Part shown: in pieces, positions 21,532 through 54,966 of the stretch
Position numbering within the stretch: the stretch's first letter is position 1
Layout: every line of letters starts with the position of its first letter
Source: Eledone cirrhosa
Lineage: Eukaryota
Assembly (NCBI GenBank): GCA_964016885.1
Contig: OZ024754.1
Location: 16,616,001 to 16,680,000, forward strand
DNA length: 64,000 nt
Direction of reading: 5' to 3'
Translations under genes and position numbers: made by a program
The notes under the pieces: generated by a model
Seen by the model: only the letters and a program-made list of their open reading frames with translations
Databases searched by the model: none
What the model was told of the DNA's origin: nothing

Positions 21532-21955
21532 TACAGGATAACAAGTTATTGTTATAGGTAGTCCACTTAGATGTAGTCCAGTTAGGGTACTCCGAGTAGT
21601 GGATAGTATTAGCTTGGCTAAGTTTGACTCAACAAGGCGTTTCCATAGTGATGCTGCGAGTACGCGGTGATTTCTATGTAGTTTACACTTGGAGTAATGA
21701 TAAATCAAGAAAGAAGAGTGACACGGTTTGCTATACAATCAGGGCTTTAATCACATTGCTGACAATTGTTTCTCTGAACTGGTAGGTCTAGAGATCGCTA
21801 CCCGCCTGTTTCTGCATCAATCGATCACCAATACATAGTTATAACCAGTCAATTCATCAGAGAAACAATTGTCAGGAATGTGAATAAAGCCCTTATTGTA
21901 TAGCAAACCATGTCACTCTTCTTTCAAACCATGTCACTCTTCTTTCTTGATTTAT
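21532..21955 (-). mobile_element. non-coding inverted-repeat element (~75-bp arms plus ~170-bp tail) with GAAACAAUUGUC hammerhead half
   Basis: Arms at ~21701-21777 and ~21857-21954, the right arm with an internal duplication. A rearranged second copy lies at 23605-23763. Confidence 0.7.
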
Positions 21956-21967
21956 ATATATATATTA

Positions 21968-22148
21968 TGAATTGGCAGTATCGGTAGAGGGTTGGACGCC
22001 ATGCTTTCTAGCATAGTTATGTCCCTTTACAGTCTGAGATCAAATCCCGCCGAGGTTAACTTTGCCTTTCATCCTTACAGGGTCGATAAAATAAAGTACC
22101 AGTAATGTACTGGGTAATTGCTGACCTTGTGCCTAAAGTAGAAACAAT
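21968..22148 (+). mobile_element. SINE family A
   Basis: ATTGGCAGTATCGGTAGAGG...AAAGTAGAAACAAT. Confidence 0.9.
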
Positions 22149-22908
22149 CATATATATATATTATATTTATATATATATATTATATATATATATTATATAT
22201 ATATATTATATTTATATATATATATTATATATATATTATATATATATATATATATTTATATATATATATTATATATATATATTATATTTATATATATATA
22301 TATATTATATTTATATATATATATTATATATATATATTATATATATATATATTATATTTATATATATATATATTATATATATATATTATATTAATATATA
22401 TATATTCATCATCACCATCATCATCATCATCGTTTAACGTCCATATTCCACGCTTGCATGGGTTTGGATGGGAGTTTTCCCACTTGAGGCAAGAGTGGTT
22501 GTCTTGCTCGCATAGGACTGTGTGGCTGGTTTTCTACGGCTGGATGCCCTTCCTAACACCAACCACATTTACAGTGTGGAACTGGGAGGTTTTTACCGTG
22601 TTACCTATATATATTATATTAATATATATATATTATATTTATATATGTATATTATATTTATATATATATATTATATTAATATATATATATTATATATATA
22701 TATTAATATATATATATTATATATATATATTATATTTATATATATATATATATTATATATATTATATTTATATATATATATATATTATATATATATATTA
22801 TATTTATATATATATATTATATATATATATATAATATTTATATATATATATTATATATATATATAATATTTATATATATATATTATATATATATATTATA
22901 TATATATG
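22149..22908. repeat. (TA)n-rich microsatellite interrupted by a SINE/RTE-tail fragment (~22406-22600, minus strand)
   Basis: Low-complexity TA. The fragment reads CATCATCGTTTAACGTCC...GGATGCCCTTCCTAACACC. Confidence 0.9.
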
Positions 22909-23604
22909 AGAGAGATCCTTAAAATTGTCAGTCTTGTCTTTCATATTCTTCTGTCTACAAGTAACAATCTTGGCTGAATCCTATTTCATTAAACTTTCAT
23001 GTAATTTTCTGGGTTTTTTTTTGTTGTTCCTGCTCCCCGCCCCCTGAAACCCCTACATTTAAAATCTTCTACAAAGTAAAACATGAACGATTAACAAATT
23101 ACTTAAAAACAGAGAAATGTTAGTAATTATAAGTTATTAGAGAAAACTCTGGTTAGTTTGATGTTGATTTGTTCTTTGATTATCACTGAATAGAAGTCAC
23201 GTAGTGTACAAGGGCATCAGTGTATAGTGTTATAGTCCTACTATACAAATCTAATTATACTGCAGAAGATTATAGTTATATAGATATAGATATATAAGGC
23301 AGAATATCCCTTCACTTAGGAATCCTTTTAATAGATTTAGACATCTACATCTATAATTCTTCTTGGGCTTCACTATCTTTATCTGACAAATATGATTATA
23401 TGAAACATGCTGACAATATCAGTTCTTACATTTAATATAAATGTAGAGAGCATTAAATCCAGTATTAGCTCCACAATACAGATTCCAATATATTCTGCAA
23501 GAAACTCTTTACTTTCTCAAAGAAACAAGTTATATCATATCATATATATATATATATGTTTGTGTGTGTGTGTGTGTGTATGTATATATATATATATATA
23601 TATA

Positions 23605-23763
23605 TAAATCAAGAAAGAAGAGTGACATGGTTTGCTATACAATAAGGGCTTTAATAACATTGCTGACAATTGTTTCTCTGAACTGGTAGGTCTAGAGATC
23701 GCTACCCGCCTAACTGGACTACATCTAAGTGGACTACCTATAACAATAATTTGTTATCCCGTA
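23605..23763. mobile_element. short copy of the 21532 family: arm and core joined to the inverted tail end
   Basis: 23605-23710 matches 21701-21806. 23710-23763 is the reverse complement of ~21532-21585. Confidence 0.85.
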
Positions 23764-23836
23764 TATATATATATAACTATATATATATATATATACGATA
23801 TTAATAAATGGAAACTATATTTATAAAACCATATTT

Positions 23837-23899
23837 ATTTCATTATACATATTTCAGGGATACCAAATTAAATTATGGTATGCCTTCATCAGACAAAAT
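23837..23899 (-). ncRNA. type I hammerhead ribozyme (PLE pLTR)
   Basis: Reverse complement of 24130-24192. Confidence 0.8.
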
Positions 23900-24129
23900 A
23901 CAATATATAACAGTTTTACAAATAAGCTTTGACGTACCCTTTTAAAATGCAACCATTATTTTTGGAAGCCATCCGTCTTTTTCTTTCTCTCCGTCTTTTT
24001 CTAATTGTCCTTAACACTATGACTTATTAAAATAATATAAACAACTCACTATCCGGATGGCTTCCAAAAATAATGGTTGCATTTTAAAAGGGTACGTCAA
24101 AGCTTATTTGTAAAACTGTTATATATTGT

Positions 24130-51416: not shown

Positions 51417-51449
51417 CATGGAACTCATTTAACCATCTTTTGATCTTAT

Positions 51450-52544
51450 ATATTATATATATATATATATATATATGTATGTATATATGTATGTATATAT
51501 GTATGTATATATATATATATATGTATGTATATATATATATATATGTATGTATATATATATATATGTATGTATATATATATATATATGTATGTATATATAT
51601 ATATATATATATGTGTATATATATATGTATGTATATATATATATATATATATATATGTGTATATATATATGTATGTATATATATATATATATATGTATGT
51701 ATATATATATATATATATATATATATATGTATGTATATATATATATATGTATGTATATATATATATATGTATATATATATATATATATGTATATATATAT
51801 ATATATATGTATGTATATATATATATATATGTATGTATATATATATATATGTATGTATATATATATATATATGTATGTATATATATATGTATGTATATAT
51901 ATATATATATGTATGTATATATATATATATGTATGTATATATATATATATATGTATGTATATATATATGTATGTATATATATATATATTTATATATATAT
52001 ATATTTATGTATATATATATATATATGTATGTATATATATATATATATATTTATGTATATATATATATATATGTATGTATATATATATATATATATTTAT
52101 GTATATATATATATATATGTATGTATATATATATATATATGTATGTATATATATATATATATATATGTATGTATATATATATATATATGTATGTATATAT
52201 ATATATATATGTATATATGTATGTATATATATATATGTATGTATATATATATGTATGTATATATGTATGTATATATATATGTATGTATATATGTATGTAT
52301 ATATGTATGTATATATATATGTATGTATATATATATGTATGTATATATATATGTATGTATATATATATGTATGTATGTATATATATATATATGTATATAT
52401 ATATATATGTATATATATATATATATATATATATATATATATATATATATATATATATGTATATATATATATATATATATATATATATATATATGTATAT
52501 ATATATATATGTATATATATATATATATATATATATATATATAT
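51450..52544. repeat. compound TA microsatellite
   Basis: Low complexity. Confidence 0.97.
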
Positions 52545-52766
52545 AATTAAGTTAAAAATGTACATCTACATATGCATACTGAAATACTAGTGTGTATATG
52601 AATACACACACGTATACATATGTAGGTGTACCAAGTCTTTCACTGGTCGCTTTGCAGTGAGCGGCCAGCTATTCTGTATGTAAACACACAGACAAACCGG
52701 TTTTTAGAGTCATACTGGTTTTTCGGGGGAACACCTTCCCCCTATTCTCCAGAAAGCCAGACAAGG

Positions 52767-52811
52767 AATATTGAACTAGTTTCGTTGTTGTTACAACTCA
52801 TCAGCAATATT
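52767..52811 (-). ncRNA. type I hammerhead ribozyme, 467-bp unit 1
   Basis: AAUAUUG-CUGAUGA-GUUGU(AACA)ACAAC-GAA-ACUAGU-U-CAAUAUU. Helix I extends through UUCUCCAGAAAG/CUUUCUGGAGAA. Confidence 0.9.
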
Positions 52812-53233
52812 TACCTATCTACCGGCCTTTCTGGAGAATTGTAAAAGCACATATCGTTATATGCTTTTTCTATGAAAATTAGTAGTGGGCAGACTAATTT
52901 GCATAGAGTGTGAGTACGCACCGGTTCAGCGGAGACGATAAAAACAAATAACGAAACGAAATTAAATTTCGTTTCGTTTGTAACTCACTTTTGTATGACT
53001 GACGCTTAAACAATTAAGTTAAAAATGTACATCTACATATGCATACTGAAATACTAGTGTGTATATGAATACACACACGTATACATATGTAGGTGTACCA
53101 AGTCTTTCACTGGTCGCTTTGCAGTGAGCGGCCAGCTATTCTGTATGTAAACACACAGACAAACCGGTTTTTAGAGTCATACTGGTTTTTCGGGGGAACA
53201 CCTTCCCCCTATTCTCCAGAAAGCCAGACAAGG

Positions 53234-53278
53234 AATATTGAACTAGTTTCGTTGTTGTTACAACTCATCAGCAATATT
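53234..53278 (-). ncRNA. type I hammerhead ribozyme, 467-bp unit 2
   Basis: Same sequence as 52767-52811. Confidence 0.9.
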
Positions 53279-53858
53279 TACCTATCTACCGGCCTTTCTG
53301 GAGAATTGTAAAAGCACATATCGTTATATGCTTTTTCTATGAAAATTAGTAGTGGGCAGACTAATTTGCATAGAGTGTGAGTACGCACCGGTTCAGCGGA
53401 GACGATAAAAACAAATAACGAAACGAAATTAAATTTCGTTTCGTTTGTAACTCACTTTTGTATGACTGACGCTTAAACAATTAAGTTAAAAATGTACATC
53501 TACATATGCATACTGAAATACTAGTGTGTATATGAATACACACACGTATACATATGTAGGTGTACCAAGTCTTTCACTGGTCGCTTTGCAGTGAGCGGCC
53601 AGCTATTCTGTATGTAAACACACAGACAAACCGGTTTTTAGAGTCATACTGGTTTTTCGGGGGAACACCTTCCCCCTATTCTCCAGTTACAAACGAAACG
53701 AAATTTAATTTCGTTTCGTTATTTGTTTTTATCGTCTCCGCTGAACCGGTGCGTACTCACACTCTATGCAAATTAGTCTGCCCACTACTAATTTTCATAG
53801 AAAAAGCATATAACGATATGTGCTTTTACAATTCTCCAGAAAGGCCGGTAGATAGGTA

Positions 53859-53903
53859 AATATTGCTGATGAGGTGTAACAACAACGAAACTAGTTCAAT
53901 ATT
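53859..53903 (+). ncRNA. type I hammerhead ribozyme, inverted unit (T>G at 53874 in helix II)
   Basis: AATATTG CTGATGA GGTGTAACAACAAC GAAA CTAGTT CAATATT. Confidence 0.85.
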
Positions 53904-54966
53904 CCTTGTCTGGCTTTCTGGAGAATAGGGGGAAGGTGTTCCCCCGAAAAACCAGTATGACTCTAAAAACCGGTTTGTCTGTGTGTTTACATACAGAATA
54001 GCTGGCCGCTCACTGCAAAGCGACCAGTGAAAGACTTGGTACACCTACATATGTATACGTGTGTGTATTCATATACACACTAGTATTTCAGTATGCATAT
54101 GTAGATGTACATTTTTAACTTAATTGTTTAAGCGTCAGTCATACAAAAGTGAGTTACAAACGAAACGAAATTTAATTTCGTTTCGTTATTTGTTTTTATA
54201 TATATATATATATATATGTATATATATATATATGTATATATATATATATGTATATATATATATATATATATGTATATATATATATGTATATATATGTATA
54301 TATATATATATGTATATATATGTATATATATATATATGTATATATATGTATATATATATGTATATATATATATATATATATGTATATATATATATATATG
54401 TATATATATATATATGTATATATATATATATGTATATATATATATATGTATATATATATATATGTATATATATATATATGTATATATATATATGTATGTA
54501 TATATATATGTATATATATATATGTATGTATATATATATATGTATGTATATATATATGTATATATATATATGTATGTATATATATATATGTATGTATATA
54601 TGTATGTATATATGTATGTATATATGTATATATGTATGTATATATGTATGTATATATGTATGTATATATGTATATATGTATGTATATATGTATGTATATA
54701 TATATGTATGTATGTATATATATATATATATATATGTATGTATATATGTATATATGTATGTATATATGTATGTATATATATATGTATGTATGTATATATA
54801 TATGTATGTATGTATATATATATATATATATGTATGTATGTATATATATATATATATATATATGTATGTATATATATATATATATATATATATATGTATG
54901 TATATATATATATATATATATATATGTATGTATGTATATATATATATATATATATATATATACATT

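Follow-up and report, generated by a model that had tools for sequence, protein, structure and literature searches.

The window analyzed here, 64,000 nt of Eledone cirrhosa DNA (GenBank assembly GCA_964016885.1, contig OZ024754.1, positions 16,616,001 to 16,680,000), is TA-rich animal DNA with reverse transcriptase (RT) fragments of long interspersed nuclear elements (LINEs) as well as numerous short repeats. It holds six insertions, here named A to F, which carry whole or partial hammerhead ribozymes and are arranged in the manner of Penelope-like elements (PLEs). A preliminary description of the sequence had linked them by one insertion pattern and had taken it as direct structural evidence that the RT and the GIY-YIG endonuclease (EN) of PLEs mobilise non-coding ribozyme RNAs in trans. 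Here we report the structure of the insertions and of related copies, compare them with PLEs of the Hydra clade and consider which of them call for an enzyme acting in trans.

Two-armed insertions in TA repeats

All six insertions were found at the places described before, and their arms were confirmed by alignment and self-BLAST (E-values 2e-27 or better). In each of them two arms lie head-to-head with joined 5' ends and outward 3' ends. One arm stops at a point here named X, the other reaches a second point, T, past a tail. The arms were identical in 260/263 columns in A, 187/188 in B, 47/47 in C, 45/52 in D, 512/513 in E and 65/69 in F. Tail lengths were 89-90 nt in A and B, 77-81 nt in C, approximately 77-82 nt in D, 72-74 nt in E and approximately 170 nt in F, the spread being due to 1-4 nt at either end in which RNA and TA flank agree. 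Within this microhomology the tails given earlier are correct, with the ranges above for D and E and with the tail arm of F placed on the left side. The earlier statement that all insertions sit in TA repeats holds for 11 of the 12 outer ends, which adjoin (TA)n; the exception is the tail end of D, located at (CT)n.

At the junction of the two arms a microhomology of 4 nt (B), 2 nt (E) or 5 nt (F) was found. F', a second insertion of the F family that had been overlooked, showed 3 nt. The junction of C contains 2-3 untemplated nt, and those of A and D were not resolvable. Several ends recur within the window: A and B have both X and T in common, as have F and F', and C has its X in common with G-left and its T with C'. 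The copies G-left, G-right, C' and I are one-armed; inversion is therefore common but optional.

Whole hammerheads were counted by descriptor over positions 16601-64000, with 10 shuffles as control. In total eight were found, two each in A and B, three in E and one in I, an element absent from the earlier description, compared to 0-1 in each shuffle. Of the whole or half hammerheads reported for all six, those of A, B and E are whole and those of C and D are 3' halves, while F carries a near-whole form whose stem II is enlarged. The partial hammerheads are truncations, as in C, D, F, C' and G-right the arms start within the ribozyme fold or at its border.

The layout common to A to F is the known PLE footprint of two internal reverse-transcription starts. 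This agrees with the inverted copies and tails on record for PLEs (PMC8557442, PMC3846280). A different origin, by DNA-level fold-back repair at TA cruciforms or as an artefact of assembly or library preparation, would draw on the long TA tracts, which are plentiful in the window, and on the arms of B and C, identical save for the end column. We regard it as very improbable. X and T ends coincide across separate loci and independent contigs, there are 1-7 internal differences between the arms in A, D, E and F, and X24, one of the sequencing runs discussed below, contains E with another inversion joint (52946/53182, 5 reads, 3 starts). In D and F the arm differences may reflect two RNA molecules or age.

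Element A codes for an RT followed by an EN. Five full-length homologues matched its minus strand in this order (tblastn, E 1e-38); A sets in at approximately residue 260 of these and has two frame changes, near 49812 and approximately 49550. Pfam gave a weak RVT_1 match and no match for the EN. The Hydra clade is defined by a CxCX5C linker, CxxC and CxH; its members insert into (TA)n and have canonical hammerheads (Craig et al. 2021, PMC8557442). In A the CxCX5C linker and the CxxC and CxH around a conserved E and N are invariant alignment columns, and a canonical hammerhead in the pseudo-long terminal repeat (pLTR) and insertion into (TA)n are present as well. A is truncated before the N-terminal RWK/DKT region, of which the homologue P0001 shows RWR and DKT. 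Judged by its sequence, A is a dead, 5'-truncated Hydra-clade PLE. It had been called a coding Penelope, which is right as to the RT/EN but has to be qualified by the truncation and the frameshifts.

A and B are approximately 93% identical. B is a member of the A family truncated in both arms and not a separate miniature element, so the six insertions belong to five families, about as many as had been proposed. The arms of C, D and F are 3' ends of 44-326 nt with absent 5' parts, too short to be called non-coding miniatures. The T-arms of A and B begin at the same base (50289 and 23976). Together with their equal length this would fit a master transcript whose 5' pLTR was copied completely, or else stalling at a purine-rich repeat. 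We observed that the T-arms of A, B and E (53687) all begin 209-210 nt before the ribozyme cut, which for E is probably a coincidence.

The remaining copies are listed together with A to F in Table 1. The tail of F contains an ACTC..GAGT-type helix, seen in the fold only, around an insert of approximately 100 nt, which accounts for its length. The right arm of F' consists of the last 53 nt of the tail only. The region 21175-21501 was considered as a single two-armed insertion G, but this was ruled out: a TA run divides the halves and these belong to different families. Element I had no BLAST match to A; its X-type end lies 39 nt past the cut, and its TA tract is also that of the X end of E.

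Table 1. Features of the PLE-type insertions, their relatives and the look-alike J (positions in the window)
Feature	Position	Strand	Description
A, X-arm	47335..50288	-	5'-truncated PLE assigned to the Hydra clade: partial RT, C-terminal GIY-YIG-type EN, 3' untranslated region, hammerhead (cut 47385); X 50 nt past cut
A, open frame	48873..49784	-	CxCX5C linker and endonuclease region with CxxC, CxH
A, T-arm	50289..50637	+	inverted 349-nt pLTR; hammerhead core 50449, cut 50497; X plus 89-nt tail
A, hairpin in tail	50554..50575	+	ACTC..GAGT motif, 6 nt past X
B, X-arm	23795..23975	-	family of A; 181 nt, hammerhead cut 23844
B, T-arm	23976..24324	+	349 nt; 5' and 3' ends as in A T-arm
C, X-arm	43250..43293	-	3' half hammerhead
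C, T-arm	43297..43430	+	hairpin motif at 43358
C'	34617..34742	-	one-armed relative of C; T 98 nt past cut
D, X-arm	37048..37092	-	3' half hammerhead; 7/52 columns differ from other arm
D, T-arm	37105..37233	+	hairpin motif at 37161; adjoins (CT)n
E, X-arm	52545..53686	-	2.44 head-to-tail 467-nt non-coding units; hammerhead cuts 53241, 52774
E, T-arm	53687..54197	+	1.1 unit, cut 53896; past X (~54125) plus tail
F, T-arm (left side)	21535..21860	-	hammerhead with enlarged stem II; ~170-nt tail
F, X-arm	21856..21953	+	half hammerhead; 21-nt internal duplication
F'	23606..23761		second F-family insertion; left arm at X of F
G-left	21175..21331	-	one-armed family C copy; degenerate full hammerhead; X 17 nt past cut
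G-right	21346..21501	+	different family; hammerhead core, fold-back 5' end, hairpin 21442; T-type end 95 nt past cut
I	50924..51447	+	one-armed; further PLE-like family, 3' end; hammerhead whole (core at 51354, cut at 51408)
J	38817..38973		fragment in back-to-back layout, lacking a hammerhead; LINE-like family (copies 59469-59968, 61021-61518); control

Hairpins at the probable start sites of Hydra-clade elements

A set of 80 Hydra-like metagenome loci, which are short, served for comparison and contained 51 hammerhead sites. A GCTC..GAGCAC hairpin was located 33-54 nt past the cut in 21 of these, and a second one at 92-122 nt in 8. At 6 of the latter 8 sites the match to the open reading frame (ORF) begins 24-56 nt after hairpin 2. 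A TA run within 260 nt was present at 19 of the 51 sites, 13 times at 29-57 nt, six times at 92-125 nt and never in between. No hairpin stands before the 13 near runs (locus L049 being ambiguous), while hairpin 1 precedes all six far ones. In locus L026 the TA junction of the 3' copy, projected on the 5' copy, falls 7 nt ahead of hairpin 1; for L010 the junction is approximately 6 nt ahead of hairpin 2. Each class of TA junction in these loci is located just 5' of a hairpin. Seven further hammerhead sites were too short downstream to be judged. The published consensus sequences of Hydra-2_Amil and Hydra-1_Ajap hold the same hairpins. No two-armed copy could be made out clearly when the 80 loci were searched for inverted repeats. 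In two of the loci (L065:358-510 and L028:508-624) a Hydra-type 3' end lies in a TA run beside another family, similar to the arrangement of G.

To score the motif we used a two-block profile instead of a covariance model, since MAFFT failed to align the 5' stem strand of the hairpins. The profile was built from 27 of 30 regex matches in the metagenome loci, leaving out L071, L058 and the second copy of the L010 hairpin. In A, B, C, C', D and G-right it gave 11-19 bits at a site 6-8 nt past X (for C' and G-right counted from an assumed X-equivalent), a score reached by 0.02-0.22% of background windows. The ACTC..GAGT found directly after X in A, B, C and D is a compensated variant of GCTC..GAGCAC, the outer pair being A-U in the window and G-C in 26 of the 27 training sites.

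Twin GCTC..GAGCAC hairpins at the two start sites are apparently undescribed. Neither these nor junction evidence for retrozymes was reported in the literature searched, a coverage that most subscription papers lie outside. The hairpins would provide a concrete, mutable cis signal for the unexplained tail and inversion of PLEs, and they lead to a direct prediction for the one PLE with an existing in vitro system.

Element E and its route of insertion

Element E is the only one of the six insertions that is demonstrably non-coding. The longest ORF of its unit has 20 aa, the GC content is 38% and the circular fold is far more stable than that of 40 shuffles (z -11.6). Each of the head-to-tail units carries a type I hammerhead, scoring 38.6 bits against the Rfam family HH9, below the gathering score of 52. 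Tandem units with such a ribozyme, lacking coding capacity, below 45% GC and strongly self-paired, are the features of a non-LTR retrozyme. At the same time E shows those of a PLE-type insertion, namely an inverted 5'-truncated copy, a one-sided tail and two recurring 3' ends (the recurrence in one run, among the rows listed).

X and T are located 229 and 301 nt 3' of the ribozyme cut, thus inside the unit, and priming was therefore internal. Furthermore, the X-arm of 1142 nt spans two cut sites, so that a cleaved linear monomer cannot have been the template; we infer either a circle or an uncleaved multimer.

Reads and contigs of four runs (X1, X3, X6 and X24) out of 24 listed were compared with one E unit. 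The head-to-tail joint was present in all four, one of which (X6) comes from another organism. In run X1 1007 contigs aligned to E, 520 of them with an identity of 99% or more, 288 with 95-99%, 156 with 90-95% and 43 with less than 90%. Partial alignments were found for 63 contigs, including 19 in the rows listed. Of the six loose-end rows listed for X1 two have a (TA)n consensus, at 52938 (equal to T, 6 contigs) and at 53007 (5 contigs; X at 53012 shifted by a 5-nt over-extension), in both cases on the 3' side. The other four rows (8 contigs) are non-TA. X1 contigs also break or begin at 52938, 53012 and 53013, and longer TA-like stretches elsewhere in the unit are not among the listed TA ends. 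The expectation of a fixed X and a fixed tail across copies was thus borne out for E in this run, among the rows listed.

Runs X5-X20 (16 runs with other organism labels) contain 15-41% of the sampled words of E, and in X6 diverged fragments of E retain the tandem joint; E could be an ancient family common to several species. Two majority variants near T (52919 and 52929) had been taken as a compensatory pair, which was dropped since the predicted folds permit more than one register.

Between E and the Hydra family of the window neither a common 3' sequence nor, save for a weak match after T, a hairpin in cis was found, and self-BLAST gave no match between E and A. The distance from cut to X is 229 nt in E compared to 17-59 nt elsewhere. 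As the hairpin is lacking at X and X lies that far past the cut, there is nothing that connects E with the PLE of the window, and its partner is probably not of the A family. A likeness between the tail of E and the Hydra hairpin, noted by eye, was not borne out by the profile.

Based on these data it is likely that all insertions listed were made by PLE-type RT/GIY-YIG proteins, acting in cis on A and B and in trans on E, in the latter case probably from a PLE other than that of A. A PLE-type protein would nick both strands of a (TA)n tract. The freed 3' ends would each prime complementary DNA (cDNA) on the element RNA at X or T, with 1-4 nt of TA microhomology. Both cDNAs would extend toward each other, halt early, often in the ribozyme fold, and be joined via short microhomology, which would leave two 5'-truncated arms, one of them with the X-to-T tail. 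In the Hydra clade the start sites would lie 4-9 nt 5' of a short hairpin, most likely a protein-binding signal, and tail length would correspond approximately to the distance between the hairpins. Truncated ends of coding PLEs, copied in cis, would be seen in A and B and probably also in C, D, F, G and I; E would represent a non-autonomous retrozyme-type RNA copied in trans from the uncleaved multimer or circle.

With regard to the mobilisation of non-coding RNAs in trans, the preliminary description went too far in speaking of direct structural evidence, since the footprint is indirect evidence. Five of the six cases are explained most simply without trans action, because A codes for RT and EN, B belongs to the A family and C and D carry the hairpin of coding PLEs. 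For E, mobilisation in trans by PLE-type machinery is likely; it is required unless E is a pLTR array of a coding element. Such a tandem array on the transcript of an autonomous PLE could have been copied in cis, with both cDNAs stopping before the ORF. PLEs do form partial tandems, most of their copies are 5'-truncated (PMC8557442), and the E ribozyme has the palindromic minimal stem III of PLE hammerheads. We consider this explanation unlikely, given that approximately 165 non-coding nt extend from T of E to the next cut, set against the 24-56 nt between hairpin 2 and the ORF in 6 of 8 cases at Hydra loci, and that the tandem joint is retained in a second organism (X6). Of the aligned X1 contigs the share that continues into unlike sequence is 0, a weak argument as the contigs are short.

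LINEs were named as an alternative for retrozymes by Cervera and de la Pena (PMC7229834). Insertion of E by LINE machinery would combine internal priming at T/A-rich sites with twin priming in the style of L1, and the two ends of E are indeed T/A-rich. LINEs of the RTE and CR1 types are abundant and several LINE RT fragments are present in the window. In addition, J belongs to a family that we take to be LINE-like with a C2H2-type end; both of its ends are internal and in TA, and its layout is back-to-back and similar to that of A to F. Twin priming in the style of L1 yields non-overlapping segments of one RNA. In contrast, the arms of E overlap over 440 nt, and E shows two fixed internal ends approximately 73 nt apart, which is the signature of PLEs. 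For E and J together we therefore rate insertion by LINEs as slightly less probable still than the copying of an array in cis. J itself is a candidate either for an unrelated RNA captured by a PLE or for LINE twin priming.

Several observations count against the reading of E as a retrozyme inserted in trans by a PLE, and against the common origin of all the insertions. Since the ribozyme-free J has a similar layout, geometry alone is not diagnostic. No autonomous partner PLE was found for E. After X of E the profile recognised no Hydra hairpin (score -10.5; 59% of background as high), and the hairpin after T, although the best site in the unit, is weak (3.2; as high in 3.5% of background). No TA-flanked ends of E were present among the rows listed for X3 and X6. 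The ends in X24 lie at AATT sites, one overlapping X, and were excluded; they would represent enzyme sites of restriction-site-associated DNA sequencing and are unusable as end evidence. A further 115 loose-end rows over the four runs exist beyond those listed, and those of X1 may hide other TA-flanked ends. As to the hairpin, the regex that selected the training sites was composed after both data sets had been viewed, the window motifs, C' excepted, score below all leave-one-out training values (18.7-31.8), and nine hammerhead sites with at least 100 nt downstream lack the hairpin as well as a TA run. The profile score of F (1.1; 6.5% of background) does not reach significance, and allowing spacers as long as 130 nt did not change this; its helix is seen in the fold alone. 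The tails in the window (72-90 nt, F 170 nt) are 2-5 times as long as the published 30-40 nt. Finally, Arkhipova et al. (2013, PMC3846280) reported no cross-mobilisation between PLE types in A. vaga.

In a more far-reaching version, which we put forward tentatively and consider doubtful, the twin hairpins would act as a ruler. A dimeric RT/EN would load on both hairpins and start cDNA just 5' of each, with one cDNA per nicked strand of the TA repeat, and RNAs with the hairpin or a mimic, including E and J, would be inserted in trans. A GCTC..AGCAC-like motif immediately follows the right end of J; of the two family copies, the first scores 15.1 for it and the second 2.8 (post hoc). If true, the ruler would define a portable signal of approximately 25 nt for the microsatellite-directed, RNA-templated insertion of sequences.

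Apart from these elements, the window contains a satellite of 419 copies of a 40-nt unit (108-16616), which runs on into a repeat resembling a short interspersed nuclear element (SINE; 16576-16800) and whose unit resembles an amplified 5' part of that repeat. Within the non-satellite part 17% is in or beside (TA)4 or longer, to be compared with the 11 of 12 outer insertion ends that adjoin (TA)n. Rfam microRNA matches were dismissed as TA-repeat noise. Local duplications, which take in TA tracts and a CR1-like LINE 3' end, were found at 42408-43249 / 44130-44977, 45011-45361 / 55191-55539 and 54197-55215 / 55553-56597. Two imperfect palindromes (27043-27181 and 31431-31520) resemble miniature inverted-repeat transposable elements without TA flanks or hammerhead, and a lone tail-like motif (GTATTGAGTAC) at 31790-31900 lies beside a SINE-like repeat without a recognisable hammerhead or TA flank.

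Comparison with known systems

Inverted 5'-truncated copies and a tail of 30-40 bp are general features of PLEs (PMC8557442). A resembles the EN+ PLEs of the Hydra clade described there in the order of RT and EN, the linker, CxxC/CxH, pLTR hammerhead, (TA)n, inverted copy and tail; its hammerhead differs from the one published for Hydra-1_Obim. The twin GCTC..GAGCAC hairpins are not mentioned for the clade in the available text and supplement of that paper.

For Poseidon PAc of Anolis two internal starts on the RNA have been reported, with an interval equal to the tail and with ribozyme cleavage being dispensable (Frangieh et al. 2024, PMC11167929). The purified protein, a predicted dimer, cleaves both strands of AT-rich sites and extends them. 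The insertions described here agree with this system in two internal starts that define the tail, in AT-rich targets and in uncleaved RNA as substrate. They differ in the position of the starts, which in PAc, a member of another clade, are at an AC-rich stem-loop inside the ORF and at Hydra loci in non-coding RNA 5' of two hairpins. Inversions of PLEs have instead been explained by self-priming on an antisense template (PMC3846280).

With the animal non-LTR retrozymes (PMC7229834; bioRxiv 10.64898/2026.07.22.740005) E has in common its tandem, non-coding nature, the type I hammerhead, a GC content below 45% and strong self-pairing. Its unit of 467 nt is above the range of 170-400 nt given in 2020 and within that of 51-972 nt given in 2026. 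PLE action in trans on RNA that is non-coding or foreign has precedents in MRC1 and other non-autonomous PLEs of the Chlamys type (PMC8557442) and in an NRPS gene copy of Adineta vaga (PMC3846280), similar to E in their pLTRs and tandem or inverted copies. These cargoes have pLTR or 3' sequence in common with an identified autonomous family; none was found for E.

The idea that PLEs mobilise retrozymes is itself already published. PLEs were named as a strong candidate in 2020 (Cervera and de la Pena, PMC7229834), and the preprint of Li, Clavereau and Pollet (July 2026) argued for them from co-occurrence and pLTR trees. Up to now the arguments on what mobilises animal retrozymes have drawn solely on co-occurrence and phylogeny, and the main texts of both papers, in their available parts, contain no analysis of insertion junctions, in contrast to the present work. 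Our results add junction-level support for the PLE-type insertion of one retrozyme. The footprint at the junction, consisting of two fixed internal ends, back-to-back arms and multimeric cDNA over the ribozyme site, lends itself to scoring in any genome and distinguishes mobilisation by PLEs from that by LINEs.

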